This document shows positions 24,614-42,407 of a stretch of DNA of 64,000 nt, one piece after another. The notes under the pieces were generated by a model. The model saw only the letters and a list, made by a program, of their open reading frames with translations, ran no database searches and was not told where the DNA came from. The first letter of the stretch is position 1, and each line of letters starts with the position of its first letter. This stretch comes from Candidatus Latescibacterota bacterium (GTDB lineage: Bacteria; Latescibacterota; UBA2968; GCA-2709665): contig CBDCOX010000002.1 in assembly GCA_965219995.1 (NCBI GenBank), positions 2,592,001-2,656,000 on the forward strand, written 5' to 3'. The translations under genes were made by a program, and so were the position numbers.

Positions 24614-24862
24614 GGGATTGCCTCCGTTGGGTTTCCGCGCGGGATCGGGGAGCGGATGTTTCAGATGGAAGGATTGATCGATCGGGTCAAATATAACAAC
24701 GGGACACCCGGAGAAAAACCAAAATTGGCGCACGGTTTCTGATGATACCGCGTACGTTTTCGGATTCAGTTTCGGGGTATCCCGGGTTGGTTTCGCAGGG
24801 AGAACGGCGTGCAGATCCCGCAGACGCGGTGGGCCGGCCGGCCCTGGCAGGGAGAGATTACG

Positions 24863-26374: not shown

Positions 26375-26811
26375 GGATGGCCCCTGCGAATTCCGCCGGC
26401 GCGTCCCCGGACGTCGCAATCCAGCGCGGAATTGATGACGTATGCAGGCGTTTCCGGTGGAAACGCACGGTCGAATCCCATGTTCAGGAGACGTACTTCC
26501 ACGTCGCGCCAGTCTTCGTTGCCTTCAAGCAGGTTGCCGCCGACATAGACCAGAATCTCTCCGATGCCCGCTTCGATGCAACGTTCGCGGAAGCCGCGGC
26601 AGTCGAGTCGGCCCTGTGCGTACAGAGAGAAAATAAGGATCGCGTCCGCATTCGTTTCCACAGCCGCGCTGACGAAATCAACCGGCGGAGCGAGGGACGC
26701 CATCGACACGACACGGTATCCCGCCCTTTCCAGAGCGCTGCCGAAACTCCGCGTGTCCGCGGTATGTCGGTCCGATCCGATTGCTGCGATGATCAGTGTT
26801 TTTCGATTCAA
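26371..26811 (-). CDS. glmS: Methylaspartate (glutamate) mutase S subunit, B12-binding, with a degenerate motif
   Basis: KTLI..IGSD.H, AAVETNADAIL.SLY.QG..DC.GFRERCIEAG, YVGGNL, MGFDRAFPP; ATGA overlap with glmL. Confidence 0.85.
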   Translation of the reverse strand: MNRKTLIIAAIGSDRHTADTRSFGSALERAGYRVVSMASLAPPVDFVSAAVETNADAILIFSLYAQGRLDCRGFRERCIEAGIGEILVYVGGNLLEGNEDWRDVEVRLLNMGFDRAFPPETPAYVINSALDCDVRGRAGGIRRGHP

Positions 26812-26875
26812 TGGACTGCACCGAACACAACCGGTCGTCTCTTCGTGAAATCAGATTGGTCCGGAGGCGGACGTT

Positions 26876-28072
26876 TCAAACGTACCGCCACGCCCATCGG
26901 CGCACAGCGCGGCTCAATCTGGCGAGGCGGACCCGCCCCACGAGGGGGTAAACAGGAAGGAACAGGAGTTGGGGCCACAGCGCCAATACGCTGGTTGGCG
27001 CCTGGTCCGGCAGATTCCGGTATGGCGGAACTACGCAAAGAGACGGTGGCCACAGATGTGCGTCAAAGCCGGCGTCCCAGAGTCGCCGGCACAGGTCCGC
27101 GGCATTACCGACGCGGACGACGAAGAGCCAGTAGGAGTGGTCCGCGCGACGACCCGGATAACAGAGCTCCGGAACGCTTCGGTGAAACGCCATGGCCTCC
27201 GTACGGCAGCCTGTGCGCTCCGGTGCATTGGAGCGCAGTCGCCTCGACAATAAATACAAATGGGCGCCGCATGGTTGACGGCGGATTTTCTTGAGCAGTT
27301 CCAACCCCCGGAAACCGCGGGTTGCGCGGTAACTCACGGCATCGTGCGACCTTCCCAACAGACGGCACGCGGCGCATAGAAGCGTATATGGACCGGGCAT
27401 GTTGAGCAGGAGAACGACGCCGTATTTCGCGAGGCGCAAGAAGAACCGCGCCTTGCCCTGGACCGGATAGCTGTAATGCAGCCGTCTGACCTCGTCCCTA
27501 AGGTCGGGATCGCGCACAAAGAGCAGGCCGCCGCCCAACGCGGTATTGTATTTGATCGGGCCGAAGCTGAACATACGCACGTGGCTCTCAGGATGTCCTG
27601 TAAAGTCGTCACCCCGATAGGCCTGGGCGCAGTCCTCGAACAGCACAAGGCCATGCTTCCTGGCGAAGCGTACCACAGGATCCATGGGGATCCGGGCGCC
27701 GAACAAATGGGTGGCCAGCAGCGCAACGGCTTTCGGCGTAAGCCCGTCGTTCAGGCTGTCCGGGTCGGGTTCGAGCGTTTGGGGATCCAGATCGACCGGA
27801 ACGGGTACGAGACCGTGGCTCCGGATGATTTCGAGTATGTCGGGGATGGTGATGGCGGACACCAGGATGTGCGAACCACGCGGAAATCGGGCAGCCTGGA
27901 GAACGGCATCGAAGCCGCTGCGAAGCGAAAGGAAGAAAAGGGCCTCGTCCGGATTGCCGGTGCTTTCGCGGCAGGCATCGTGCCCTTTCGCGCGACGGTC
28001 GCCCGAGAGGCATTGGCCCATGCCGAAAAGGAGATCGCGCCAGCCGATATCCAATCTCTTACGGGGAATCAT
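26876..28072 (-). CDS. DegT/DnrJ/EryC1/StrS family PLP-dependent aminotransferase
   Basis: SLRSGFD, THLFG, FEDCAQA, FSFGPIK (PLP lysine), GGG; start at MIPRKRLDIG. Confidence 0.85.
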   Translation of the reverse strand: MIPRKRLDIGWRDLLFGMGQCLSGDRRAKGHDACRESTGNPDEALFFLSLRSGFDAVLQAARFPRGSHILVSAITIPDILEIIRSHGLVPVPVDLDPQTLEPDPDSLNDGLTPKAVALLATHLFGARIPMDPVVRFARKHGLVLFEDCAQAYRGDDFTGHPESHVRMFSFGPIKYNTALGGGLLFVRDPDLRDEVRRLHYSYPVQGKARFFLRLAKYGVVLLLNMPGPYTLLCAACRLLGRSHDAVSYRATRGFRGLELLKKIRRQPCGAHLYLLSRRLRSNAPERTGCRTEAMAFHRSVPELCYPGRRADHSYWLFVVRVGNAADLCRRLWDAGFDAHLWPPSLCVVPPYRNLPDQAPTSVLALWPQLLFLPVYPLVGRVRLARLSRAVRRWAWRYV

Positions 28073-28425
28073 GGACGATTCACTCGTTCGCGGGCGCGGT
28101 CGGACACGATGATGCGGTATGGGAGGACTGATGCAGCATGGGGTGAACGCTTTGTCGGGTTGTGCAAGTTCTTCCGGCCCCGTAGAATCATACATCCTCA
28201 ATATTTGCGCATGAACATCCCGATTCCCTCCAAAATACCGACATCCTGTCGCAATCTGCAACACATTAATTGACTTCGAAATCGCAATGCAGGGACGCCG
28301 ACGTGCGCTATCCATGTTTCGCATGCGTGGATCGTAGACGCGCGTTTCTTCCCCTGCTTCGTCCTTTTCCCGGGAGAGCGTCGTAGACGATTGCCCGGGC
28401 GAGGGCATCTGTGCGGGACGTGCCA

Positions 28426-29253
28426 TCAGGCGGGCTCCTGTTCATCGGGCGTTTCGACCGGCTTCGCTTCGCGCTGCGCCATTTGATTGAACCACCACAG
28501 ACCGGCCACGGCCAGGACGATGCCACTCACAAACAACCACCAGGGAAGAAACTCTACAACCTGCCAATCCTCGATAGGTCGGAATAATTCCATACGCACC
28601 GTAATCAACGACAGAAAATTGTTCAGCGCGTGACCGAACAACGCGGGCAGCAAGGAACCTGTATGTACGACCCACCACGCAAATGCGAGACCCAGTGTCA
28701 GAGATCCCGGAAATTGCCAGGGATTCATATGGAGCGCGGCAAACAGAAACGCGGACCACAGAATGGCACGCCGCCGGGTACCGTGGGCTAACAGCCCGCC
28801 CAGAATAACACCTCTGCAGAGGACCTCCTCGGTAAGAGGCGCTTGAATCGCCAGAACATAAAACGCAAGACCAAATGGTGTTTTGCTGCCCATTATATCA
28901 AGGAACATGTCGAGAAATTCTTTGGGGACTGGAATCAGATACTGCACGAAGCTTGCAAGGTTGGACAAGAAAATGCCCAATCCCACGATCGAGACGGAAA
29001 CGGGTAAGTACAACTTCCACGGAACTGGCTTGAAAAGCAGGACGTCGGACCACGGCCGACCGGACCGACGTTGCGCATATAGCACGATCAGACCAATAGC
29101 GGGCAGATTTACAATCAATACCAGGTAATCGAAGATCCGTGTCGCATTGCCCGACGCGACGCCGAGGAAATGAAGCGCCAACCCCAATGCGTTCATTGCT
29201 ACCAAAAGCAGGACCATCAACCAGACGGATTGCTTCAGATTCGGATAAGCCAT
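28426..29253 (-). CDS. CPBP/Abi (CAAX-type) intramembrane glutamic protease, paralogue 1
   Basis: EEVLCRG, FAALH, HALNN motifs; multiple TM helices; GAGG RBS before MAYPNLKQSVW. Confidence 0.92.
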   Translation of the reverse strand: MAYPNLKQSVWLMVLLLVAMNALGLALHFLGVASGNATRIFDYLVLIVNLPAIGLIVLYAQRRSGRPWSDVLLFKPVPWKLYLPVSVSIVGLGIFLSNLASFVQYLIPVPKEFLDMFLDIMGSKTPFGLAFYVLAIQAPLTEEVLCRGVILGGLLAHGTRRRAILWSAFLFAALHMNPWQFPGSLTLGLAFAWWVVHTGSLLPALFGHALNNFLSLITVRMELFRPIEDWQVVEFLPWWLFVSGIVLAVAGLWWFNQMAQREAKPVETPDEQEPA

Positions 29254-29391
29254 CCTCTTCCTCGTTTCTTGTTGAACGGATGACAACACATCGAGCGGTC
29301 CGTTTTCCCTTAGAGTCGGGCGACGATGTGTGCCCTGTCTTCTTTGCTGACTCATACAACCTGCAGCGACTGATCTTCCCTTTGACGCCGG

Positions 29392-30231
29392 TTACAACGC
29401 AGCGCCATCAGACTCGTCGTCAACCGGTGTTTCCACTTGCGCCTCGTGGCCTTTCGCCATCCTGCAAAACCACGTCAATCCGATAACGGCCAGCGCGATC
29501 CCGCACAACTGCAGCCACCAGGGAAGATACACCAGAACATCCCAATTCTCCATGGGTCCGAACAATTCCAAACGAACTGACGTCAGCGACAGGAAATTGT
29601 TCAGCGCGTGTCCGACCAGTGCCGGTATCAGCGAACCGGTCTGGATCACCCACCAGGCGAAAACCAACCCCAATATAAGCGCGACAGGGAATTGCCACGC
29701 GTTTGCATGGAACAGCGCAAACAGGACCGCCGACCAGACAATGGCCCTGTTTCGCGTTCGGTGGGCCAGCAACCCCCCGAGGATGACCCCTCTGAAAAAA
29801 ACTTCCTCCGCGAGCGGCGCCTTAACTACCATCACAAAAAAGGCAAATGGATAGGGAGTTTCCTTCCCTGCCAGATCCCCGATTAGATTCAGCAATATTT
29901 CCGGCACCGGGATCAGCTGCCGCATCAGAGTTCCAAGGTCCGTGCAGACGATCGCCAATCCGACAACCGACACGACGAGCGGAAGGTACAGCATCCGGGA
30001 AACTGGTTTGAGGAGCAGAATCTCGTCCCAGTTCCGATCGGTTCGTCGGTGTGCGTAGATCACGGTCAAAACGAAGCTTGCCAAACTCAGGATCCACATT
30101 AGATATGGACTCTGTTGTAACGGCACGTCGAGGATAAATTCCAGTATCGCAACAGGTACACCAAGTGCCATGCCAATAAGCAAGAGCAATATCAGTAGCC
30201 ATACGGATTGCTTCAGGTTCGGATACGCCAT
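29392..30231 (-). CDS. CPBP/Abi intramembrane glutamic protease, paralogue 2
   Basis: EEVFFRG, FALFH, HALNN; same N-terminus MAYPNLKQSVWL as paralogue 1; GGAGG RBS. Confidence 0.92.
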   Translation of the reverse strand: MAYPNLKQSVWLLILLLLIGMALGVPVAILEFILDVPLQQSPYLMWILSLASFVLTVIYAHRRTDRNWDEILLLKPVSRMLYLPLVVSVVGLAIVCTDLGTLMRQLIPVPEILLNLIGDLAGKETPYPFAFFVMVVKAPLAEEVFFRGVILGGLLAHRTRNRAIVWSAVLFALFHANAWQFPVALILGLVFAWWVIQTGSLIPALVGHALNNFLSLTSVRLELFGPMENWDVLVYLPWWLQLCGIALAVIGLTWFCRMAKGHEAQVETPVDDESDGAAL

Positions 30232-30273
30232 TGATTCCCTCCTCGTTCGAACATCATCTGCCGGCAGGTTCAT

Positions 30274-30402
30274 TTATCCGGATGCCGCAGCGGCCGCGGA
30301 AGAATCTTCGTTTTCCACTAAATCCAGGTTCGCGCGCCCGAATCGAGCGGCGGGCTTCTCGAGTTCATCATTCCGGAAAATCCCTTGCAGGGAACGGGTC
30401 AT
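30274..30402 (-). CDS. 42-aa small ORF (MTRSLQGIFRNDELEKPAARFGRANLDLVENEDSSAAAAASG)
   Basis: AGAGGAG RBS directly before the ATG and a sigma-54 consensus about 37 nt upstream; no recognisable family. Confidence 0.5.
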   Translation of the reverse strand: MTRSLQGIFRNDELEKPAARFGRANLDLVENEDSSAAAAASG

Positions 30403-30438
30403 GTCTCCTCTTGCGATCGTGAACAACCCGAATCGACG

Positions 30439-30455
30439 TGCAAGAAACAGGCCAG
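30439..30455 (-). promoter_or_regulatory. Sigma-54 (-24/-12) promoter for the small ORF and the CPBP pair
   Basis: Minus strand CTGGCCTGTTTCTTGCA = GG-N10-GC with TTGC; AT-rich, IHF-like tract immediately upstream (30471-30500). Confidence 0.7.
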
Positions 30456-31169
30456 ACTTGAGATAAATGGCAATGTATCGTCTATACATCATTTAATTGA
30501 AGGATTCCGGATCGAAGGAGCCCGGCTGTGTCGCAAAAAGCGCCTGACCGCGGTGACGGGTATTCCAGTACGCGCGCACGGAGGGACATAGGCTGCGGTC
30601 CGTGAAGAGATTTGGTGGGCAGTCGAGGGGGCGTACGAAAAAGCGGTGCATTCTGCAGCGCCGGATGCATTCTGCAACGATCGGCGCCGGCCGGAAACCG
30701 CGCGGAAGCGCACGGATCGGCGAGCGGGCATAAAAAAATCCCGTTCCATCCCCTCGCGATTCAGCAATGAACTTTCCGGCGGCACCCCGATTAAAGGGTG
30801 CCGGGCAGTGTCACCACTCACGCAGCTTTGAGGATGCGGGAAGGTCCTGCGTATTCGCCGGGAACGTGGGAGCTACCCATGCCCCTTTGAGTCGGCTGTT
30901 GTATTCGGCAGGCTACCCGACATACGGGTACTGCCCGAGTGGTGACAACCGGAATATAGATTCCGAGACCGGGAATGACAAGGGTTAATTTGCGACTCTC
31001 AAAAAGGGAAATCGCGGAGCCGTCCGAACGCGTGCATCACCAGGGCCGAAAACCGCATTGACGACGGGCTGCAGATGAATTTCTTGCCCGGAAACGGAAG
31101 TCGCACAGCGAGAGGTTGACCGTCGCCGTTGGCGAATGGAACCGCGACGCGCCTCCTCTTCGCCTGACA

Positions 31170-31982
31170 TCACGTGTCCGGCATCCGCGACGCCAGCACT
31201 GGATAGCGTATATCCGCCCTCTGTAACTCCCGCTGCAGCCACTGGCTGAACAATGTGTCGCGAATCTCATTGACGACACGATCGTCCAGCGTTGCCGGAT
31301 AGCGCCGCTGCAGCAAATACAGCGCGAAACCGCCCGGCGCCTTTTCAGGACCGAAGATCTCGCCCGGTTCAGCAGCGAAGAGTCGCGCGGCAATACCCTT
31401 CGGCAACTGCTCCCGTCGCAACCGCCCCATAAACCCGCCGGCCGGCCGCGTGCGCTCATCCTGTGAGAACTCGCGCGCCATTGCGCAGAAATCCGCGCCG
31501 TCCTCTCTCGTATGCAGTCCGATTTCGTCTATTACGCCTCGATCCCGGTGGTGAATCCAGCAGACTTCCGCCTCGTCGAAATCCAGCGTGTGCTGTGCGA
31601 AGTACGGTTCGATCCGTCCCTCCGAGACTTTTTCGGACATCATGCGCTCCGATCGCCTCGCGTGGGCGTCTTCCGCAACGTCGCCGAGCGTAATTCCTCC
31701 GGACCGGAGCCAGGCTTCCGTATCTTCCACGCTTTCAAGGCGGTGTCGATACCGCCAGTCGTCGACGTCGCTCTGGATGTCTTCGGGCTTCGGGTGGATG
31801 CCCTCCCTCTCCGCGAGTTGCCGCACGAGTTCTCTTCGAGCGTACTCGCCGAAGAACCCGAGCTTGTCTGCAACGCCCAGATGTCGTACAACCTGCGTCA
31901 GGGACACGTCGATGCCATTGACCCGAACCAGCGATACAGCCCTGGCCGCGTTTGCGGAGTCGTGTTCCTCCGGACGGCGCAT
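31170..31982 (-). CDS. PpiC-type peptidylprolyl isomerase / SurA-like foldase associated with the type I exporter
   Basis: DFCAMAREFSQD...GGFMG rotamase motif, GEIFGP, C-terminal IRDTLFSQWL; TGATG overlap with the HlyD stop. Confidence 0.85.
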   Translation of the reverse strand: MRRPEEHDSANAARAVSLVRVNGIDVSLTQVVRHLGVADKLGFFGEYARRELVRQLAEREGIHPKPEDIQSDVDDWRYRHRLESVEDTEAWLRSGGITLGDVAEDAHARRSERMMSEKVSEGRIEPYFAQHTLDFDEAEVCWIHHRDRGVIDEIGLHTREDGADFCAMAREFSQDERTRPAGGFMGRLRREQLPKGIAARLFAAEPGEIFGPEKAPGGFALYLLQRRYPATLDDRVVNEIRDTLFSQWLQRELQRADIRYPVLASRMPDT

Positions 31983-33382
31983 CACGTCCCGTCCTGGCGC
32001 GCGGACGGCTTTGTCGCGGCATCGTACGTTGCGGACTCGTACAGCTTTCGCAACGGACTCAGCAGCAGCAACAGGACCGACTGCCTGTCCGTCATGATTT
32101 CGGCCGTGCCCTTCATGCCGAAGAGGAGCGGCTTCTCCTGTCCTTTCACGGCCATCGTGGTCTCCTCCAATTCAACGACGCCCTTGAATATCGGCCCGAC
32201 GGTCTCGTCGATGACGGCATCCGGCGAGATCTGCTTGAGCAATCCGCGTTTAATTCCAAAGTCCTGGAACGCGAAAGCGTCGTATTTCAGTTTGACGATC
32301 TGTCCCGGCTTGAGCAGACCCACGTCCTTGTTCAAAACAGTCAGTTCGGCGACAATCGGCGCGGACGCCGGCGCCAGAGTCGCCAGAGCCTGTCCTTTAT
32401 TAATGACCTGTCCGAGCGCATTTACCTCCACCCGGGTTACAATTCCGGCCTCAGGGGCCAGAATCAGGTCCGATTCGGCATCGAGCTGGCGATCGACGCG
32501 TTTGCGCGCCTGATCCAGTCTCAGCCGCGCGGTATTGTGCGCGTGTTTGATCTGGGCGGCCTCGCGACCGTGGGCGATGCGAGCCTCGAGGATCTGGCGC
32601 TTGAGGTCCTGGACCGCCGTTTCGTTCCTGTAGATTTCCGACATGCGTCCGGGAAGCGCCGCGAGGGCGTTCAGATACCTGACGCGCGCGCGATTGATCT
32701 CCGCCCTGCTGATCAGTTGGCGTTCGTACAGCATCTTCTGTTGCAGGTAGTCCTGTTTCAGATGGTCGATTTCGGCCTGGCGAAAGCCGATCTGCGCCTG
32801 CAATTCCGTATCCGATGGGCTCCTTCCGGTACGCTCGAGGCCACCCACGTCGGTCTGGTAATCCTCCAGTGCATTCTGGTGGGCTACCGTGAACCGTTCC
32901 AGAACGGAAAGCCTTTTCTTCAGCGAAGCGATCGTCTCCCGGTTCAATTCAGTCCTTTGAGGCAATACACGGTGGAAATCGTACTCGGCCTTCTGAAACG
33001 CCATTTCCGCCTGTTCGAGTTCACGCAGGTCTCCCCAGGTTTCCCACGATTTGAGCTTGAACAGCAGCGCGCCTTCTTCGATGCGGTCGCCTTCCGTAAT
33101 ACCGATGTATTCGATTTCACCTCCACGGCGGGCCTGCAACGTCTTCACTTTTCCGAGCGGTACGAGCCTGAATGGGGCTGACGCGACTACGTCCACCTTG
33201 CCCCACCACGCCCAGACGACCGCGATGCCGACAAAAAGCAGCACGATATATAGCAGCGCCCGACCCCAAAACGGTCGCAGAGACCCGACAAACGCGCGCA
33301 TGTCATCGGCCGCGTCTTCCCGTTGCCCGGCAACGACCGGCGGCGCTGTACCCGGTGTGGGTTTCGGCGGGCGCCCCGTCAT
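31982..33382 (-). CDS. HlyD family membrane fusion protein of a type I secretion system
   Basis: Single TM helix, VDVVASA..RLVP, EGD.IEEG..L lipoyl half, coiled coil, AP.AG.V, NKDVG...GQ.VKLKYDAF.FQDFG...ISPDA, GMKGTAEI. Confidence 0.93.
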   Translation of the reverse strand: MTGRPPKPTPGTAPPVVAGQREDAADDMRAFVGSLRPFWGRALLYIVLLFVGIAVVWAWWGKVDVVASAPFRLVPLGKVKTLQARRGGEIEYIGITEGDRIEEGALLFKLKSWETWGDLRELEQAEMAFQKAEYDFHRVLPQRTELNRETIASLKKRLSVLERFTVAHQNALEDYQTDVGGLERTGRSPSDTELQAQIGFRQAEIDHLKQDYLQQKMLYERQLISRAEINRARVRYLNALAALPGRMSEIYRNETAVQDLKRQILEARIAHGREAAQIKHAHNTARLRLDQARKRVDRQLDAESDLILAPEAGIVTRVEVNALGQVINKGQALATLAPASAPIVAELTVLNKDVGLLKPGQIVKLKYDAFAFQDFGIKRGLLKQISPDAVIDETVGPIFKGVVELEETTMAVKGQEKPLLFGMKGTAEIMTDRQSVLLLLLSPLRKLYESATYDAATKPSARQDGT

Positions 33383-33409
33383 AGCGCCGGCTCCTCGTGG
33401 GCAGGAAGT

Positions 33410-36400
33410 TCAAGCCACCTGCAACTGCTGGCTGGACATGTGGTAGTAAAGGCCGCGGCGATCCATGAGTTCTTCATGCGTCCCCGTGTCGACGATATGG
33501 CCCTTTTCAAGCACGACAATCACGTCGGCATCCCGCACGGTACTCAAACGATGAGCAATGATCATCGCCGTTCGGTTTTCGAGGAATAGGTCCAGGTTGG
33601 CCTGGATCGCGGCTTCGGAGTCCGTATCCAGTGCGTTTGTGGCTTCGTCGAAGATCAGGATTCCCGGATCGCGATAAAGCGCTCTCGCGATCGCAATCCG
33701 TTGCCGCTGTCCCCCGGACAATCCGATTCCCTGCTCACCGACTTTTGTCTCATATCCCAGGGGCATCTCGGTCACAAAGTCCTGTACACAGGCCATTCTC
33801 GCCACTTCAAGGACCCGATCCATATCGGCGTCCGCTTCTCCGACCGCAATGTTCTCCGCAATCGTACCGCTGAACAGGAACGGATCCTGCATCACCATGC
33901 CCACCTGGCGCCGAAGCCAGTGCGGATCCAGGTCGCGCACGTCCATCCCGTCGAGGGTCACCCGCCCTTCAGAGGGATCGAACAGGCGCGGCACCAGCTT
34001 CACCAGCGTGGTCTTGCCCGCCCCGCTCCGCCCTACGATTGCGACTTTGCGTCCCGGTTCGAGGACGAGGTTGATATTGTTCAACACGTAGGGTTCGTCG
34101 GAGCCCACGCCGTACCTGAAAAACACCTCGTCGAATTCCACGCGCCCTCTCACCCGTTTCAGTCTCATGCCTTGTCCTCGCTGGCGCGCGTCCTCCATCT
34201 TCGCGTCGTACACGTCGTTCAGCCTGTCCAGTGCGACGCGGGCTTCCTGCACTTCCGGCCAGACGCCGATCAACCCCATTACAGGTCCCATCACGTTGCC
34301 AATGAGCGCGTTGAACGCCATCAACTGCCCCACGGACAATTCCCCTTCCATGACCAGGGATGCGCCGTACCACAGGATCACGGTTGAGCTCAACAGATTG
34401 ATCATGCTACCCCCCGCGCCGAACAGCATCTCCATTTTCAGGCGCTTGAACCCGATCTGGACTTCTTTCGTGAACTTCCCTTCCCATTGCCACCGGGTGA
34501 CGCGTTCGACGGCCTCGGCCTTCACCACGTCGACGCCGTGCAATGAGTCGATCAGCACGGACGATTGTTCCGCGCGGGCAAGAAAGGCGCGCTGGCTGAA
34601 GGACTTCAATATCGGCGTATAGATCAGCGTGAGACCCACGGATAGCGGCACGAAAATCAACATCACGAGCGTCAACTCCCAGTTGTAATAGAACATCAGC
34701 CCGAGGTAGACGAATAACATGATGAAGTCCAGTATCGCGGACACGGTTGTATCCGTAAACAGGCGCTGGATTGTTGCGTTCTCCTTGAACCGCGTGGTCA
34801 GATCGCCGGTGCGCCTGAGCGCGAAGAACCGCATGGACAGACCCAGCAGGTGCCGGTAGAACCTGGACAGCATGGTCAGGCTGAGACGCGCGCTGATATA
34901 GCCGATCAGATAGGCGCGTAACGTCGACGTGCCCATCTGGAACAGCGCCACAACGACCATACCCGCCAGCATCAGGTTCAACAGATCCCTGTCATGATGC
35001 ACAAGCACCTGGTCCACGATTGTCTGCGTGAATACCGGTGAAGCCAGCCCGAACAGGCTGAGCACGAGGGACGCCAGCAACACCTCGATCAGGATGGGCG
35101 TATAGGGTTTGATCAACGGGAAGAATCGTCTGAAGGAAGACCTGGAGGGTTCATTCTCGGATACCTGATCCGTGTATTCCAGCAAGAGGGCCATATTTGT
35201 CCAGCTTTTCTCGAACTCCGCACGGGAGAGCGTGCGGATACCCAGGCCGGGGTCGGCGATTCTCACCTTCTTTTTGAATATTTCATACAACACCACGAAA
35301 TGGTTGCCTTCCCAGTGCAGAATCGCCGGAAGCCCGGTCCGCATCAGCGCTTCGTACCCCGTGCGCACGCCCCGCGTGACGAACCCGAGCGTCTCCGCCG
35401 CCTCGGCCAGCGCCGCCATCGACGTGCCCTCGCGGGAAACGTTGCACATATCGCGCAGCCGGTTCAACCCGATCGGCATCTTGTAATACTTGCAGATCAT
35501 TCCCAGACTCGCCGCCCCGCAATCGGACTGATCATGCTGTTTCAGGAATGGATAGCGGAACGACGACGGCGCGCCGTTTCTTCCATCATCCGATTCACCG
35601 CTCCCGGTTCCGTTTGCCGTTCCACTCGCGTCGGCGACGATCTTCCCCTCTGGCGATCGGGCTGCGACCGGGGCGTGCACTTCGGAAGGGCGGGGCCCGC
35701 GGGACGGCGACGCGTTCGAATTTGCTCCTGCATGCAATTGACGCACCAGGGACGTCGCGGACCCGAACGCGGCAGCCGCTTCGCCAAGGTCACGAAAGTC
35801 GCTCTCGTCCAGGTAAAACAGAACACTATCCTGGGTACTGCGGACAACCCGCGGCCCGCCTTCGGAGCGATCGGTTTCTTCGAAGAAATCACCCGCGACC
35901 AAATGACGGGTCCCGCCATCCCCGGACATCATCTCCAGTTCGCCGCTTCCGACCGCGCAGAACCGCCCTCGCGACTGACCGGGACCTGCAACCGTCGCTC
36001 CCTTCGCAATCTCCTCCCGCTTCATACGACGGAACAACCTCCGCATCCCGTCACCGGAAACGGACCCCTTCAGGTATCGGGTGAAATTCCGGTACGCGAT
36101 ATTCGCCACCTGATCCTGGAGATGCGCCTTCAGTTCGGGTTCTCTCTTCATCACGTTGACGAAATCATCCCGTGACACCCGCAACACGTCGGAATTCTCC
36201 ACCGCGCGCACCGTTGCCCGATGCCCGCGACCGGTCAGCAGCGCCCCCTCGCCGAAGTGGTCGCCGGAATACAGGAAACCCAGGGTTTCAGGAAGGCCGT
36301 CCGCATTCCGCCTGATCACTCGCAACCGGCCGGCCTGCACAATGTAGAACGCATCGCCGGATCCCCCCTGATCAAAGACGACCGACCCGAAGGGAAAACG

Positions 36401-36451
36401 AGCGGTTTCAGACTGAATCGGCGACTGTTTAAAGCGGGATAACACGTCCAT
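33410..36451 (-). CDS. Peptidase-containing ABC transporter: two cNMP-binding domains + C39 peptidase + ABC TMD/NBD
   Basis: cNMP domain (DQGGSGDAFYIV..G...GDHFGE..LL....RATVRA); C39 QHDQSDCGAASL with catalytic Cys, HWEGNHFVV His, IADP Asp; GRSGAGKT, LSGGQRQ, IFDEAT, IAHRLST. Confidence 0.95.
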   Translation of the reverse strand: MDVLSRFKQSPIQSETARFPFGSVVFDQGGSGDAFYIVQAGRLRVIRRNADGLPETLGFLYSGDHFGEGALLTGRGHRATVRAVENSDVLRVSRDDFVNVMKREPELKAHLQDQVANIAYRNFTRYLKGSVSGDGMRRLFRRMKREEIAKGATVAGPGQSRGRFCAVGSGELEMMSGDGGTRHLVAGDFFEETDRSEGGPRVVRSTQDSVLFYLDESDFRDLGEAAAAFGSATSLVRQLHAGANSNASPSRGPRPSEVHAPVAARSPEGKIVADASGTANGTGSGESDDGRNGAPSSFRYPFLKQHDQSDCGAASLGMICKYYKMPIGLNRLRDMCNVSREGTSMAALAEAAETLGFVTRGVRTGYEALMRTGLPAILHWEGNHFVVLYEIFKKKVRIADPGLGIRTLSRAEFEKSWTNMALLLEYTDQVSENEPSRSSFRRFFPLIKPYTPILIEVLLASLVLSLFGLASPVFTQTIVDQVLVHHDRDLLNLMLAGMVVVALFQMGTSTLRAYLIGYISARLSLTMLSRFYRHLLGLSMRFFALRRTGDLTTRFKENATIQRLFTDTTVSAILDFIMLFVYLGLMFYYNWELTLVMLIFVPLSVGLTLIYTPILKSFSQRAFLARAEQSSVLIDSLHGVDVVKAEAVERVTRWQWEGKFTKEVQIGFKRLKMEMLFGAGGSMINLLSSTVILWYGASLVMEGELSVGQLMAFNALIGNVMGPVMGLIGVWPEVQEARVALDRLNDVYDAKMEDARQRGQGMRLKRVRGRVEFDEVFFRYGVGSDEPYVLNNINLVLEPGRKVAIVGRSGAGKTTLVKLVPRLFDPSEGRVTLDGMDVRDLDPHWLRRQVGMVMQDPFLFSGTIAENIAVGEADADMDRVLEVARMACVQDFVTEMPLGYETKVGEQGIGLSGGQRQRIAIARALYRDPGILIFDEATNALDTDSEAAIQANLDLFLENRTAMIIAHRLSTVRDADVIVVLEKGHIVDTGTHEELMDRRGLYYHMSSQQLQVA

Positions 36452-36540
36452 TGTATCTCTTCGCAAATGGCAGGTCTATTCGAACGTTTGGCTGTTAACC
36501 AATGTCACATTGTATACTGTGCGTCAACTATCGGTCCATA

Positions 36541-36560
36541 ACATACTATATATAGTATGT
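36541..36560. promoter_or_regulatory. Perfect 20-bp palindrome upstream of the transporter operon (putative operator)
   Basis: ACATACTATATATAGTATGT is its own reverse complement; lies about 90 bp upstream of the PCAT start. Confidence 0.6.
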
Positions 36561-36615
36561 ATCTGCTCGTAATCCACCGTTTTCAGCCGAAGAAATGTAC
36601 CCCCAATCGACGCTG

Positions 36616-37370
36616 CTACTCCGAGGGTCGGGCTCGGTCCGTCAGTTCCTTCCCTCCATCAGTCCGGTCATCGTCAGGCGGGACCTCACCCTCAGAAACG
36701 GGCTGAACGGGTTTCGCAACCCGGGAAAACCACCACAGTCCAAGCACAGCCAACGCCACCCCGGCCGCGCTGAACCACCACGGATTGAAAAACACAACAT
36801 TGAAGTCTTCCGCTACCTCTAGATATGGTATATCGAAGTGCAACGTCGTGACTCCGATGAGATTGTTCAATGCGTGGCCGAAAAGCGCAGGCCACAAGGA
36901 TCCCGTCCGGAAATACCACCAGGCGAATACGAACCCGTACAATACGGCCGGTGGAAATTGCCAGGGATTGAGATGACCCACGCCAAACAGAAACGCCGAC
37001 CAGAAAATCGCCCTGTTCCTGGTATGGTGTGCCAGCAAACCGGCAAATATCGCGCCTCTGTATAGAAACTCTTCAACGGTCGGGGCGACAAACACGGACC
37101 GGAACACGGCTGAGGAGTAGGATGTTTTGCGCCCGAACTCCGATTTGAAAATGTCCTGGATGAAATCGGGAATAGGAATCAACCGAATTACCGCTTTGTC
37201 CAATTCAAGTAGAACCATCCCGAGACCAGCGATCGAAATTGCCACACAAGGCCACACGCGCCAACTAAAGTCAGTGTTGAACAGTCGACGTATATTTTCC
37301 AGTCCAACTCAGCTCGGCTTGCCAAGTAACCCAAAATGACCAGCAGACTTACGTACGACAGAATCGACCG
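36616..37370 (-). pseudogene. CPBP/Abi protease paralogue 3, frameshifted near 37295 (catalytic part intact at 36616-37257)
   Basis: EEFLYRG, FGVGH and HALNN are present. Upstream sequence in another frame reads SILSYVSLLVILGYLASRAELDW, matching the paralogue segment IYAHRRTDRNW, then shifts into NIRRLFNTDFSWRVW. No intact start is visible. Confidence 0.7.
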
Positions 37371-37587
37371 TAAATTTCGTCGATGAGGCTGTCTGTTAGT
37401 CTTCTAAGTTCACATCGATGCCGAATCGCCTTCCAGGTGATCCGGCATCGACGTGACGACGAAAGACGACGCATTGAACAATTAGTACGCTTGTCTCTCG
37501 GTGATTAAGCCAGTTTACCTGATTGGGTCCGTGTGGAAACCCTATTCCCCCTTCAGATAAACCGACAGCCAGCTTCGGCGATGTCTC

Positions 37588-37866
37588 CTATGTTTTCGTG
37601 CTGCTATCGGCGGAACGCCGGAAGAGCCGGGCCATCACGCTGTCCGCCCATTCCCAATACGACTTTAGAATCCACGGCGTCGCGATCAGACCTCCCGCCA
37701 AACCACCACTTAGCCCAAAGATTACGCTCAGACTTAGTCCAGGAAAGGCATATTCAAGCACCGCGATCAACTGAGGTCCTACAAAGATGGTCCAAAATAG
37801 AACCAAGAGGGCGGTACCGAAAATCGCGCCTTGCCACGTGTCGGAAAGGAAAAATCTACGTTCCAT
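37588..37866 (-). CDS. 92-aa membrane protein, candidate immunity protein
   Basis: GGAGG RBS; two hydrophobic helices, the second with a GLSGGLAGG glycine zipper; directly downstream of the large precursor. Confidence 0.7.
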   Translation of the reverse strand: MERRFFLSDTWQGAIFGTALLVLFWTIFVGPQLIAVLEYAFPGLSLSVIFGLSGGLAGGLIATPWILKSYWEWADSVMARLFRRSADSSTKT

Positions 37867-38045
37867 TTGAGACCTCCACAACGCTTGATGGGACTTCACG
37901 CGGAAATCAAGACGTAACTTCCCGTCTAAATTCCAACGCTTGTGGACACTTCTGAGTACCCAATTCGACCTGAAACACCAAGTATTGTGTTGTTTTACGA
38001 CTCCTCATACACCTGATTAAAAGCGTACGGCGTGAATCCTGCCTT

Positions 38046-38426
38046 TCAACCAGCACACTTGCAGGTACAGGCTGCCTTTTCTGGCGGATCAAGTTCTTTC
38101 TTCAATTCATTAAGGGTATAGCCGACTACACCAACCAACGCACCCGTCCCTGCTGCAATTGCGATTGCTGTTCCGCCGATGGCAGTTCCCGCTGGACCAC
38201 CCAACGCTGACGCGATCGCTGCCGTCCCGTATACGGTCGCTACGCCACCCACGGCACCAGCACCGGCCGCCCAGAGAGCGTCTCCCCAATCCCAGAGACC
38301 ATCGATGCCCGCCATTTCTTCGAAAGTGAGCGTCGACTGATGTATGGGTAACGCCTCGCAAGCATTGTATGTGCCACTTGATTCGAAGTGAGTTCCCAAG
38401 CGATTGTCCAAGGCGATTGTGTTCAT
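38046..38426 (-). CDS. Double-glycine-type precursor peptide A (bacteriocin/microcin-like, 126 aa)
   Basis: TAAGGAGG RBS; leader ends LTFEEMAGIDG(L); Gly/Ala-rich hydrophobic core; C-terminal ACTCKCAG. Confidence 0.85.
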   Translation of the reverse strand: MNTIALDNRLGTHFESSGTYNACEALPIHQSTLTFEEMAGIDGLWDWGDALWAAGAGAVGGVATVYGTAAIASALGGPAGTAIGGTAIAIAAGTGALVGVVGYTLNELKKELDPPEKAACTCKCAG

Positions 38427-38968
38427 GACTTCCTCCTTAAAGACCGATAAAATTAAACGTTAGTAGTTCTGGTAACTTCGGGTACATCCAGTTACACCGC
38501 AATGTTTCATTCCACGCGGTCGTGGGTTTTCGAAACGGTTTTTAGCAATCGACGCGAAAGAACCTGCTGCACAGGACCGTGTCCATGATTATTCCGTTGA
38601 AAACAGACTACAGGATAAGGCCTTGCTTTTAATATAACTAGCTCAGCCATCTTTTTCTGGTTGGTTTCTGAACGGCCTCGACAAGCCCCACGCAACGTTC
38701 GCCCATGTGTTAACTGATGGCTGTTTGGCAACTGGATGAATTGCTGGGCAGAGGACAATGTCTTACGTGTTTTGCCGCCGCTTCAGCCAGATTCGTTGTC
38801 AAACCGACACAACAGGGCATCTCGTCACCCCTTTCTTACATTCTCAGCGATTCGCAGACCCGCCTCATTTGGCGTCCTTGTGAAGAGTCCATCTAACTCT
38901 CCGACAACGGATCACTGGGAAATTATGTAGAGTCAAGTGACGATTCCGTATTGGATGCAACAGGACAA

Positions 38969-39172
38969 CTAAAATGTACCTCTTGGCCTTTCCGGCTCCG
39001 GCAACGTTACGCCGAATATCTCCGCGACCCAATTTCTGAGAAGACGGCCCAACCCGGCGTCGCCACCGGAAATCTGCGCGGTCTGGCCTGCGGTCAGGTC
39101 TTCCGTCTGAACCGGCAGACGGGCCGGAACTTCGTGAGACGCCGCAGGGCTCGATGCAATTCTTCTGTTCAT
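38969..39172 (-). CDS. Double-glycine precursor peptide B (67 aa; 30-aa core DAGLGRLLRNWVAEIFGVTLPEPERPRGTF)
   Basis: AAAGGAGGTG RBS before ATG 39172; leader ends LPVQTEDLTAGQTAQISGG; hidden inside the longer 177-aa ORF of the track. Confidence 0.8.
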   Translation of the reverse strand: MNRRIASSPAASHEVPARLPVQTEDLTAGQTAQISGGDAGLGRLLRNWVAEIFGVTLPEPERPRGTF

Positions 39173-39398
39173 GTCTCTCACCTCCTTTCTCCAGCATCCT
39201 CGCGACGTCCGGACAATCGTGTTGCCCCTCCGATCACCGGATTCGCGCCGCGCGGATGCATTGATGTCCGAAGCGTCTGTAACCCTTCTTCCTCCCGAGG
39301 CATTCGCCCCTCGGGAGGCGGCTTCGGCTTTGAACCAATGGGTACGTTTTGTTGCAGAACGCGAGCGCGGTCTGCAACGCTGTCGACGCATTGGAACC

Positions 39399-39413
39399 GC
39401 AAGGACTGTGCCA
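39399..39413 (-). promoter_or_regulatory. Sigma-54 (-24/-12) promoter upstream of the precursor genes
   Basis: Minus strand TGGCACAGTCCTTGC = TGGCAC-N5-TTGC consensus. Confidence 0.75.
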
Positions 39414-39584
39414 CTCGCGACACCCCCCGGCATAACTGTCTGGCCTGCAAATGCGAATCGATTTGGAGGCTTCCGGGAGGCCGACGTCTCTCGGCGAATC
39501 ATTGAAATTTGTGTTCCATTCTGCGTCAGTCAGATGAAAACATATTGCCTGTGGCGCCTCAGAGAATCCACCCGGGACCGATGC

Positions 39585-39615
39585 AAAAAAACACCGGCGA
39601 CATAGGTCACCGGTG
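39585..39615 (-). terminator. Possible intrinsic terminator (or palindromic regulator site)
   Basis: Minus strand CACCGGTGAC-CTAT-GTCGCCGGTG followed by T7. Confidence 0.5.
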
Positions 39616-39885
39616 CATTCATCGAGAACAAAAAGGGGTTATGTCACCCCTTGTTCCGCCGAGAATGATCGGATAGGCAGGAAGACAATGAGAAGCGAAG
39701 AGGACCCGCAATCGGCCGTTTCAAATGACAAGAATTCCGGTTGCCGAGGTTCTGGGATATCGTTAAACTTGGAGACAATGTGGTAGAGCGCGCAACGGAA
39801 CGCCAGTTTGATGAAGCTCTTCGAACTGCAGCGTCTCCAATGGGCCCGAACTGCGTCCCACCTCCACGCCAGCCCAACGAAATCC

Positions 39886-40329
39886 ATGCCTCAATTCGGA
39901 AAAATCCTGTCTCCCACGTTCGGGAAATTCCTGGTCACCGGTCTGGGCGGCGTATTCGTCAATCTCGGTTCGTTTCAACTGATGCTCACGCTCGGCGTGC
40001 ACCCGCTGCTGGCGTCGCCAATTGCGATCGAGCTTTCGATCATCTCCAATTTCCTGCTCAACAACTACTGGACCTTCCGCGACCGCTCGCTGTCCGGAAG
40101 GCGGCGGATCCGGGGGTTGAAGTATCATGTTGTTTCGTTTGTGACGCTGTTGCTGAGCTACGGCACCTTCGTGTTGCTCTCCGTGTTGTTCACGGATGTG
40201 CCGCTGATCATCCTGCAGGGATGCGCGATCGCCCCGGCCGGCGTGCTGAACTACTCCGCCAACTCTCTCTGGACGTTTCGTGAAGCAGCGAATGAGGATA
40301 GCAGCGACGTCCGGGACGGAACGGGATGA
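39886..40329 (+). CDS. GtrA family protein (lipid-linked sugar translocase)
   Basis: KFLVTGLGGVFVNLG, ELSIISNFLLNNYWTFR, NY..N..WTF; ATGA overlap with the next gene. Confidence 0.9.
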   Translation: MPQFGKILSPTFGKFLVTGLGGVFVNLGSFQLMLTLGVHPLLASPIAIELSIISNFLLNNYWTFRDRSLSGRRRIRGLKYHVVSFVTLLLSYGTFVLLSVLFTDVPLIILQGCAIAPAGVLNYSANSLWTFREAANEDSSDVRDGTG

Positions 40330-42407
40330 ATCGCGCGCGCGCCAGGCCTGAAGCATTCGAACCGACCCGCGACGCCGCCGCTCTGGCCGCGTCCATCCTT
40401 GGTCCCCTCGCCCTGTACGTGCTTACGATGCCGCGAACCGTTGTTCTGGAAGACGACGGTTTGTTTCTGATGGCCGGCGCGCACCTGGGCGTGGCCCATC
40501 CGCCTGGATACCCTCTTTACACGTTTATTGTCTATCTCTTCACCCTGTTGCCCTTCGGCAGCGCCGCCTTCCTCGGCCATCTGTCCAGTGCGGTGCTCGG
40601 AGCCTCCGCGTGCGGCTGTGTTTACGTCTGCGGTCGCCTGATCGGCACCTCCCCCATTCCCGCCCTGACGGCCGCCTTGCTTTTTGCCGCCTCGGAGCAT
40701 GTCTGGGCTCAGGCCATTGTCACCGAGGTCTACACGCTCAATGCGCTGTTTTTCTTCGGCATCTACGCACTGCTTTTGTATGGCGTCCGCCACCCTGACA
40801 GCGCCGGTATCTGGATCGCCGCCGCGGCCGCCTACGGATTGAGCCTGGCCAATCACGTGCCTCTTATGGTGCTGTCTGCGCCGGGGCTGGCATTGCTCGC
40901 CTTTTCCGTACGGCGGCGTCTATACAGCAAACTTCCACTGCTCCTGGCCATTCTCGTGTGCGGAGCCGCATTGCCCTATGCCTGGATGGTATGGCGGTCG
41001 CATCAGGAACCCTTGATCAATTTCTACGGCTCTATCGATTCCCTGAAGGACTTCTGGTTCTACTTCAGCAGGAAGGGGTACATCGAAGTCGATATCAGCC
41101 CCAGCGCTGGTTGGATCGACCGATTCAGGTTCATGCATTGGCTTGGCAACGAGTTTCTGTGGCAACTCACGCTGCCGGGATTCGCGCTCGCCGTACTCGG
41201 CCTGGTCGTTCTTTTGCGGAGGCGGCAGGTCGCGGTTGCTGCATCGGGACTGCTGGTCTTCCTGGCAAACAGCGTACTGCTGATCGTGCTGCTCCGCTTC
41301 GATTTCGACTATTTCCAGGTTGCGGTCTTCCGGCCCTATTCAATCTTGTGTTACGGTCTGCTGGCGTTGTGGCTGGGCATTGGATTGCAGTTTGCCTTCA
41401 ACCGGTTGAGATGGACGCCGGCCAACCGTCCTTCGCGCAAGAAGATGATTAATTCGGGTGCGACAACGCTCGCCTGCATTCTTCTGGTCGGGTGGACGGT
41501 ACGTGCGCACTGGCAGGCCAACGATAGAGCCGACGCCGTGTTCGCGGAACACTACGCTGAACTGCAGTTCGACCTCCTGCCAAGAGACGCGGTACTGTTC
41601 GTATTCGGCGACGCCACCGGCCCGACAGGCTACTACAGATATGTCGAACAGCGGCGTCCGGATGTCACGCTGTACAATCTGCAGGGACTCGTCTACGGCG
41701 ATCGCCTGTTCAACCCGTTCATGTCGACGAAGAAGAAGAATGAGGTCCTCGAACGATTCATCGATTCGAACGAACGGGCGATATTCCTGCCGCTGGACGT
41801 CGATACGTATCCCAGCCGCGAACTACGGATCTATGGCTTGCTAATGGAGGCGGCCAGGGGCGGCAAACCCGGAACGATAAAGTTGAAGCGCCATCCCCGC
41901 GGAGAGGAATTCTTCGTCCAGCTCGTCAATCAGCGTCCCACGGACCGCTGGGAGCGCGTCCGGCGAAACGAAATGTTGTTCCACTACGGGCGTTATCTGG
42001 GGTTGGCCTTTTTCACCGGAGACCCGATATTCCAACAGATGCAGGAACCGTTCCGGCTCGCGCACGAGAGCTATGCAAGCCTCATCGGGATGGCTACCGT
42101 CGTCCTTGATAACGGAAATGCCGCTCATTGGCCGCAGGTCGCCGAATGGCTGACCCGCGCGGAGGGCCTCAGGCACGAAGCACTGAAAAAGAAAACCCTT
42201 GCGGAACTGTATTTCCACAAGGGAAGACTGCTGCAGAATCAGGGACGAACGAACGCCGCCGTCGCGTCGTTCAGGAAGTCCCGGGACATTTATCCCCATC
42301 CACGGAACAAGGCGCTCAAAGCCCTGGATCAATACAAAATCGACTTCAAGCGGGTCGTTCCCGCCGGTCCAAAAACCCCGAATCCCAGTGTGCCCTCGCC
42401 CCGATAG
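40326..42407 (+). CDS. DUF2723/TMEM260-like GT-C membrane glycosyltransferase with a C-terminal TPR
   Basis: LYVLT.P.TV..ED.G, LGVAHPPGYPLY, WAQAIVTEVYTLN, GLSLANH, FGD, RRPDV. Confidence 0.88.
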   Translation: MNRARARPEAFEPTRDAAALAASILGPLALYVLTMPRTVVLEDDGLFLMAGAHLGVAHPPGYPLYTFIVYLFTLLPFGSAAFLGHLSSAVLGASACGCVYVCGRLIGTSPIPALTAALLFAASEHVWAQAIVTEVYTLNALFFFGIYALLLYGVRHPDSAGIWIAAAAAYGLSLANHVPLMVLSAPGLALLAFSVRRRLYSKLPLLLAILVCGAALPYAWMVWRSHQEPLINFYGSIDSLKDFWFYFSRKGYIEVDISPSAGWIDRFRFMHWLGNEFLWQLTLPGFALAVLGLVVLLRRRQVAVAASGLLVFLANSVLLIVLLRFDFDYFQVAVFRPYSILCYGLLALWLGIGLQFAFNRLRWTPANRPSRKKMINSGATTLACILLVGWTVRAHWQANDRADAVFAEHYAELQFDLLPRDAVLFVFGDATGPTGYYRYVEQRRPDVTLYNLQGLVYGDRLFNPFMSTKKKNEVLERFIDSNERAIFLPLDVDTYPSRELRIYGLLMEAARGGKPGTIKLKRHPRGEEFFVQLVNQRPTDRWERVRRNEMLFHYGRYLGLAFFTGDPIFQQMQEPFRLAHESYASLIGMATVVLDNGNAAHWPQVAEWLTRAEGLRHEALKKKTLAELYFHKGRLLQNQGRTNAAVASFRKSRDIYPHPRNKALKALDQYKIDFKRVVPAGPKTPNPSVPSPR

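Follow-up and report, generated by a model that had tools for sequence, protein, structure and literature searches.

We analysed a window of 64,000 nucleotides, the whole stretch of Candidatus Latescibacterota DNA presented above, for the gene that we call precA and for the export locus around it. precA lies on the minus strand at 38046..38426 (stop included) and encodes a 126-residue precursor. Its open reading frame (ORF) runs from an ATG at 38426 to a stop at 38046-38048, with a strong Shine-Dalgarno sequence, AAGGAGG, read at 38432..38438, 5 nt upstream of the ATG. An earlier note, made from the sequence alone, had described this ORF, a leader, a core of about 82 amino acids and an ACTCKCAG end; all are present in the sequence, and the coordinates agree exactly. 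Downstream of precA, on the same strand, follow in order tm103 (37588..37899), encoding 103 amino acids with two hydrophobic segments; a gene for a CPBP (Rce1-like) intramembrane protease (36616..37257; PF02517, E 2.3e-20); a long-type ATP-binding cassette (ABC) transporter with a built-in peptidase (PCAT), of 1018 amino acids (33410..36466), recognised by Pfam, NCBIfam and alignment, with cyclic nucleotide monophosphate (cNMP)-binding domain(s), a C39 peptidase and an ABC exporter; an HlyD-type membrane-fusion protein (31982..33382; HlyD_3 in Pfam, also NCBIfam); and a PpiC/SurA-like parvulin protein (31170..31985), with a Rotamase domain and a weak TIGR04500 match (88 bits against a cut-off of 180). 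After a gap come two further CPBP genes identified with Pfam (28426..29355 and 29392..30273). Upstream of precA, also on the minus strand, lies precB (38969..39172), assigned by sequence and homology to a second precursor family; it encodes 67 amino acids with a canonical ISGG leader end and has its own AGGAGG.

precA is a real gene and not a chance ORF, as judged from its relatives in the searches and from the C39-ABC exporter that adjoins the precursors in 8/8 related loci. A single-sequence search gave 22 relatives at E<=0.01 among 219 candidates, a profile search gave 77 at E<=0.001 among 8000 scored candidates, and an exhaustive scan of 1.84 billion cluster representatives returned 11 at E<=0.001. 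All eight related loci recovered from species genomes come from Latescibacterota, to our knowledge a phylum without cultured members. A precA-type match was found in 21 of 168 Latescibacterota genomes, 18 of them in one genus (18 of its 21 genomes); the window's own genus has such a match in 2 of 15 genomes, the window's genome counted. No paralogue of precA was found in the window or the genome, and no NCBIfam leader model of the NHLP or Nif11 families matched any of six precA-family members scanned at E<=0.1. In the related loci, the PCAT shares 74-76% identity with that of the window, while the HlyD gene was seen in 7/8, the PpiC-like gene in 6/8 and a CPBP gene in 6/8, with the stretches available for L004 and L005 ending early. 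The conserved homologues near PCATs on which the earlier note had made its reading depend were therefore found.

Contigs from an RNA library, of 164 and 627 bases and with zero differences from the window, span 37526-38306, a stretch that takes in tm103 and two-thirds of precA from its 3' end. In a DNA run of that sample, the corresponding sequence differs at 128 bases and has 4 gaps over 3.3 kb. RNA run X9 gave no contigs over 22 of 30 bins and is uninformative on expression there. In run X5, a single contig of low depth connects 37877 directly with 38400 and so lacks 522 bases, which include most of precA; its shorter side is just 29 letters, and it may derive from another strain or organism. 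The database copy of precA, P0002, from a 2.2-kb contig, is 105 amino acids long and identical through residue 101, after which it reads RLYP. A one-base indel would account for this end and for the loss of linker and tail; the truncation may be natural or may stem from a sequencing error.

On the evidence of alignments, residues 1-44 (38295..38426) are read as a double-glycine-type leader with Leu in place of the second Gly. The proposed -2/-1 pair is Gly43-Leu44 (38295..38300, minus strand), placed by homology, with Leu44-Trp45 as the proposed scissile bond. In a 22-row alignment, N8, R9, C23, L26, P27, I28, L33, E37, M38, D42 and G43 are invariant and Leu44 is at least 90% conserved. With Leu44 at -1, Leu33 falls at -12, Glu37 at -8, Met38 at -7, Ile41 at -4 and Gly43 at -2. 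Leu33, Glu37, Met38 and Gly43 are also invariant, and Ile41 at least 90% conserved, in a 36-sequence alignment as well as in the 22-row one. The leader thus has the hydrophobic residues at -4, -7 and -12, the Glu at -8 and the Gly at -2 of double-glycine leaders, in agreement with the published consensus of Leu -12, Glu -8, hydrophobic -7/-4 and Gly -2 (PMC6363468, PMC6959990), and it departs from them in lacking Gly, Ala or Ser at -1.

The register with Leu at -1, first suggested in the earlier note, is upheld by homology to double-glycine (GG) leaders. The window's two leaders, precA LPIHQSTLTFEEMAGIDGL and precB LPVQTEDLTAGQTAQISGG, are colinear over 19 residues and gapless. An hhalign comparison of the two families (E 5.4e-5, probability 67%) pairs Gly43 with the first Gly of SGG, Gly36 in precB, and three members with the family-1 N-terminal leader carry EGG or SGG at the Gly43-Leu44 columns. 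A census of the -2/-1 pair covered 85 distinct sequences (78 database proteins and 7 translated from loci, leaving out the truncated P0002 and P0080, which has no leader match) and gave GL in 74, GM in 2, GV in 1 and GG in 3; the remaining 5 have GRGG, with the register unclear. The -1 residue is therefore conserved, a point that the comparison with homologues proposed in the earlier note was meant to test. The residue after Leu tracks the core class (W 41, C 25, G 15, N 3, T 1), which places the end of the shared conserved block at Leu44. An AlphaFold2 (AF2) model built from the 36-row alignment shows a short helix at 35-41, corresponding to -10 to -4, which is the span of the leader bound to C39 domains in solved systems (PMC6959990, PMC6363468); its mean predicted local distance difference test score (pLDDT) is 67 and its predicted template modelling score (pTM) 0.47. 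Further upstream, both leader families share an invariant Leu26-Pro27 (-19/-18), and in family 1 Cys23 does not vary either (codons 38349..38351 and 38358..38360, minus strand). These residues sit upstream of the known C39 contact region, and the operon holds a parvulin-type, Pro-directed protein, which may bind the Leu-Pro half of the leader.

The PCAT combines PF00027, PF03412 (C39, E 5.4e-39), PF00664 and PF00005 in one protein. Its C39 domain aligns with LahT150 (E 1.9e-22), PCAT1 and ComA, and keeps Q310, C316, H389 and D405. This is the only C39 domain in the genome, which is 98.6% complete, so that if a C39 domain processes both precB (GG) and precA (GL), it is the one in this PCAT. Leader homology and synteny together support the view that precA is a precursor-type substrate of the C39-ABC exporter. 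Additionally, a second copy of the export locus (L017) in genome G045 contains tm103 together with a precA-like gene whose product, P0024, has a Cys tail; the cNMP-domain part of its PCAT crosses two TGA stops, and the C39-ABC part is intact at 89% identity. Between the PpiC-like gene and the next CPBP gene of the window, the segment 30485..30984 is conserved and looks non-coding, with similarity in all frames, stops included. Its DNA identity is 88% to the sister species G053 and, over 30723-30993, 85-91% to two other species of the genus; on the minus strand, 30792-30921 gives a weak Rfam match to sRNA-Xcc1 (E 0.016; 28 bits, with the cut-off at 53).

The whole core comprises residues 45-126, or 82 amino acids, with 44% Gly+Ala, 4 GxxxG motifs and 18 small-xxx-small spacings. 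Residues 45-118 (38073..38294, minus strand), described from the sequence and the AF2 model, start with WDW and contain two Gly/Ala-zipper hydrophobic segments split by GGPAG, followed by a charged linker, NELKKELDPPEKAA. The hydrophobic glycine zipper accounts for 58 residues, and the AF2 model places a long helix at 47-112. The glycine-zipper make-up that had led the earlier note to liken the core to pore-forming class II bacteriocins is thus borne out. Beyond the conserved leader block, members of the family split into unrelated, hypervariable core classes: glycine zippers that begin WDW or WSW, cores that begin with Cys and end LIIPNKMLF, acidic and proline-rich cores that end YCSYSIW, and cores with CLCP-like ends. 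Unrelated classes behind one conserved block indicate one leader with many cargos. Pfam matches of precA homologues are weak and all below cut-offs (Bacteriocin_IIc, Gly-zipper families and DUF6861); for Bacteriocin_IIc (PF10439), precA itself gave no match at E<=0.01 and its homologues scored 10.6-17.1 bits against a gathering threshold of 27.1. A language-model atlas returned class II bacteriocins at 0.81-0.85, to be taken as leads only. The weakest match of the profile search, P0080, has an N-terminal hydrophobic segment, signal-peptide-like by eye, in place of the leader and then a glycine-zipper core starting WTWGDF, an architecture which suggests that the core module may exist outside the precA leader family.

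The core ends in the Cys tail ACTCKCAG (38049..38072, minus strand), with Cys120, Cys122 and Cys124. In the census, 22 of the 85 sequences have at least two Cys in their last 12 residues. Half of these (11) have glycine-zipper cores and fall in two leader subclades, one starting MN-IALDN with ends such as CKCSCACCR and one starting MSVIALNN or MSAVTLKN with CTCSCN ends; the other 11 are the CLCP class. The tail is absent from 31 of the 41 WxW glycine-zipper members. The possibility that the CxCxC motif is non-conserved read-through, raised in the earlier note, is ruled out by this recurrence and by conservation in two leader subclades. At the orthologous locus of a sister species (genome G056, locus L015, 4760-5044, plus strand), a GG-leader hydrophobic peptide ends GGGSCCCKK, a further case of a Cys-rich end, with another leader and another core. 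When 13 proteins encoded between 22751 and 42407 were scanned with Pfam and NCBIfam, there were no LanM, LanB/C, radical-SAM, prenyltransferase or acyltransferase proteins; the rest of the genome was not searched. A CAAX-type tail was considered and rejected, as precA ends CKCAG and its homologues CACCK, CSCRQ or CTCRR, with no common C-a-a-X end. We infer that the tail may be an optional handle that stays unmodified and serves in metal binding or in cross-linking through thiols.

tm103, precA and a 542-bp spacer form a variable cassette of 1.7 kb (37279..38967), delimited by DNA alignment and GC content. The sister species G053 has a PCAT of 93% identity and flanks with a DNA identity of 88-93%, and lacks a counterpart of 37279-38967. 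The GC content of the cassette is 0.47-0.53, against ~0.58-0.65 in the PCAT and upstream genes. All 15 genomes of the window's genus have an orthologous PCAT (61-93% identity), and different, GG-type precursors stand at their loci. tm103, called as an ORF and singled out by its co-occurrence, has homologues in 6/6 loci whose precursor is a WxW glycine zipper (the window, L002, L004, L005, L017 and, as a weak match, L003) and in 0/8 loci that lack such a precursor (L006-L009 and L013-L016). On the basis of this pattern, tm103 is probably the immunity protein for the precA core. Hypervariable cores, a co-varying small membrane protein and cassette swapping are the usual marks of toxin-immunity pairs, and it is on this context that the assignment of the precA product as a putative toxin rests. 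precB-family members with SGG leader ends lie upstream of the G-L (Gly-Leu) precursor in 8/8 related loci, and orthologues of precB are present in four GG-only loci of the window's genus. Most precB-family cores of g11-type loci are very acidic, with a Cys start and Trp-rich end motifs.

We consider it fairly probable that precA encodes the precursor of an exported glycine-zipper bacteriocin, of Cdz-like or class II type, which is cut after Leu44; that the C39 domain makes this cut is, from the sequence comparisons, likely to a similar or slightly higher degree. In the proposed mechanism, residues 1-44 would act as a double-glycine-type secretion leader with the second Gly replaced by Leu. The leader helix (-10 to -4) and the anchors Leu33, Met38 and Ile41 would dock on the C39 domain of the PCAT, which most likely cuts after Leu44, and the PCAT with its HlyD partner would then export the 82-residue core. 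The two Gly/Ala-zipper hydrophobic helices of the core may insert into and damage competitor membranes, as Cdz-type and class II bacteriocins do, and tm103, the two-helix membrane neighbour, would protect the producer. The putative toxin-immunity pair would form a swappable cassette within a conserved export locus. The CxCxC tail would be a conserved accessory module, probably unmodified by enzymes of the operon, whose likeliest role is the thiol cross-linking of oligomers or metal binding.

Several observations weigh against this interpretation. The cleft at the C39 scissile bond is very narrow in solved structures (PMC6959990, PMC6363468), and PCATs characterised until 2025 all cut after GG, GA or GS, according to one report (PMC12457901). 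That report also shows experimentally that the C39 domain OrgT156 cleaves a glycocin precursor after Gly-Lys, so that a bulky -1 residue is possible; the hydrophobic anchors of this substrate are shifted to -9/-14, unlike those of the precA family. The C39 domain of the window is ~95% identical to those of two sister species with GG-only loci. When the C39 domains of 10 loci with G-L precursors were compared with those of 4 GG-only loci of the window's genus, a single column out of 156 set the groups apart, and no remodelled pocket is therefore evident. The separating column is PCAT residue 346 (codon 35429..35431, minus strand), which is E, Y or Q in G-L loci and D in GG-only loci. It aligns with residue 51 of PCAT1, one helical turn before Ala55, which touches Leu(-7); as the loci are related to each other, this residue is a lead and not a test. 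Regarding the core, a homology search with residues 45-126 alone returned only the truncated copy of the same protein, so that the label bacteriocin rests on composition, context and analogy. The AF2 model, of middling confidence, leaves room for either a hairpin or a single long helix in the core. No Pfam family matched precA at E<=0.01, and the only NCBIfam match was NF041559, the type VI secretion system effector BTH_I2691 family (E 0.03, 12.9 bits against a cut-off of 150). This match, far below its cut-off, was treated as shared glycine-zipper composition. Finally, the RNA evidence consists of contigs, from which transcript start, ends, strand and level are not readable.

For the odd -1 residue, the earlier note had offered three options, namely cleavage after Asp-Gly, a relaxed C39 specificity and CPBP-assisted maturation. 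Relaxed specificity is the best remaining one, with the Gly-Lys cleavage as its published precedent (PMC12457901), and the other two fare less well. It is unlikely, in our estimation, that the C39 domain cannot cut Gly-Leu at all and that the leader only targets precA, to be kept or removed by another protease such as a CPBP protein. The narrow clefts and the GG, GA and GS sites of characterised C39 domains would be in line with such a scheme, as would the unchanged pocket of the window's C39 domain and the CPBP genes, of which the window operon has three and 6/8 related loci at least one. However, secretion of cargo by PCATs is reported to require cleavage (PMC6959990), Gly43 and the anchors at -4, -7 and -12 are invariant or nearly so, as expected for a leader that enters an active site, and a C39 domain has been found to cut after a -1 residue as bulky as Lys. 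CPBP-assisted maturation is also disfavoured by the distribution of the genes, which occur with or without G-L precursors: all 4 GG-only loci of the genus have CPBP genes, L007 and L008 hold G-L precursors without a CPBP gene in the 20 kb examined, and the number of these genes shifts with the cassette, as that of immunity genes does. Cleavage one residue earlier, after Asp42-Gly43, would leave mature peptides that all start with Leu and would use an invariant Gly at -1, where Gly is canonical. This is very unlikely, as it would put Asp at -2, a position held by Gly in all known sites, and would move the anchors to -3, -6 and -11. It would also break the colinearity with the GG paralogues, whose Gly-Gly aligns to Gly43-Leu44 and not to Asp42-Gly43, and a Leu common to unrelated core classes is better explained as a residue of the leader.

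Two further explanations concern the product. precA may encode a peptide that is synthesized ribosomally and modified after translation (RiPP), with enzymes whose genes lie elsewhere acting on its Cys or core (thioether, lipid or other modification) and an active product that differs from the plain peptide. Cys-rich C-terminal ends in three unrelated core classes, a 44-residue leader whose conserved N-terminal half extends beyond the known C39 contacts, and the PpiC-like relative of 'peptide maturation' proteins, present in the window and seen in 6/8 related loci, would all suit a modified peptide. Nevertheless, we regard this as quite improbable, given that the scans of 13 proteins from 22751-42407 found no Cys-modifying enzyme, that the one related Cys-tail locus with full context (L002) shares only the export set with the window, and that the 31 WxW glycine-zipper members without the tail have the same operon type. 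The product could instead serve the producer itself, as a signal or as a structural or surface peptide, considering the developmental role of long-type PCATs such as HetC (PMC10986499). A 58-residue hydrophobic glycine zipper is unlike known pheromones, however, and hypervariable cores under a fixed leader, co-variation with a small membrane protein and a cassette swapped between close species make a role other than that of a toxin highly improbable.

A PCAT-exported glycine-zipper bacteriocin with an immunity gene, which is how we read precA, is an already known kind of system. We found no report of the precA family or of a Gly-Leu C39 site in the literature searched, and the Gly-Lys cleavage of 2025 is the only precedent that we found for a bulky -1 residue. 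As far as the searches go, what appears to be new is a family of leaders in the canonical register whose -1 residue is aliphatic and conserved, with GG paralogues beside it and one peptidase, together with a long conserved N-terminal half of the leader with an invariant Cys and Leu-Pro, and recurrent Cys-rich ends. A broader proposal, possible but rather unlikely at present, is that Gly-(Leu/Met/Val) leaders are an overlooked class of C39 substrates, that long-type PCATs accept an aliphatic -1 residue besides Gly and that Cys-rich ends are a metal or thiol handle reused by unrelated classes of cargo. If so, the G[G/A/S] rule would fail to cover one or more branches of C39 exporters, and genome mining based on it would have missed cargo of long-type PCATs, which would help to explain the apparent lack of substrates of cyanobacterial group I clusters and HetC. 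Leader motifs are a route to finding bacteriocins and RiPPs in genomes and to predicting final products, and precA and precB offer a natural substrate pair for specificity at the residue before the cut. The locus also documents the exchange of a candidate toxin-immunity cassette in Latescibacterota.

Several known systems resemble precA and its locus in part. In class IIb (siderophore) microcins, a leader of the double-glycine type precedes a hydrophobic core rich in Gly, and the C-terminus carries a short handle that differs in composition, being Ser-rich and enzymatically linked to a siderophore. The handle of precA is Cys-rich instead, and the 13 neighbouring proteins scanned include no modifying enzyme. 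The Cdz-like bacteriocins, CdzC/CdzD of Caulobacter (PMC5380434), are likewise small (60-151 amino acids in that paper, 126 in precA) and have an N-terminal leader, a type I ABC exporter with an adaptor, glycine-zipper segments, one or two in number, with Pro or charged residues at their borders, a neighbouring gene for a small membrane protein that confers immunity (a candidate in the case of precA) and a patchy distribution among strains; removal of the leader on export is known for Cdz and predicted for precA. Three of the four search criteria for Cdz-like proteins in that paper describe precA, namely size, zipper segments and the charged region NELKKELDPPEKAA, and the leader end G[G/A/S] does not. 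precA differs from Cdz in its G-L leader end, in a 44-residue leader with a conserved N-terminal half, in the Cys cluster after the charged region and in a long-type exporter with cNMP domains and a PpiC-like partner, and the likeness comes without a significant sequence match.

In the register of the leader, precA resembles the substrates of LahT150, PCAT1 and ComA (PMC6363468, PMC6959990, PMC10885120), which share the Leu(-12), Glu(-8), hydrophobic -7/-4 and Gly(-2) residues and the helix from -10 to -4 (predicted in precA), with an adjacent PCAT that has intact Q, C, H and D residues. It is unlike them in having Leu at -1 (also Met and Val in the family) rather than Gly, Ala or Ser, and in ~25 further conserved residues upstream, including Cys23 and Leu26-Pro27. 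The glycocin precursor cut by OrgT156 (PMC12457901) shares Gly at -2 and a bulky -1 residue, accepted by the C39 domain in that system and predicted to be so in precA; OrgT156 belongs to a Gram-positive system with anchors at -9/-14, whereas precA has the canonical register, an aliphatic -1 residue and one peptidase that would serve GG precursors too. In architecture, the locus resembles the cyanobacterial clusters of groups I, II and VI and HetC (PMC3140520, PMC4558948, PMC10986499), which have the same long-type exporter with N-terminal cNMP (CAP_ED), C39 and ABC domains. HetC has no known substrate (PMC10986499), and group I clusters hold a mean of 0.35 recognised precursors per cluster (PMC3140520, PMC4558948). 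Like clusters of groups I, II and VI (PMC3140520, PMC4558948), the window locus has an HlyD protein and a SurA/rotamase-domain protein, and the cNMP-C39-ABC PCAT, HlyD and SurA-like rotamase together correspond to the definition of a group I-type cluster. It differs from these clusters in its phylum, in the added CPBP genes and in precursors that are plainly identifiable, and it provides a tractable model of a long-type exporter with a SurA-like partner, an architecture that is common in cyanobacteria, where its substrates are mostly unknown.

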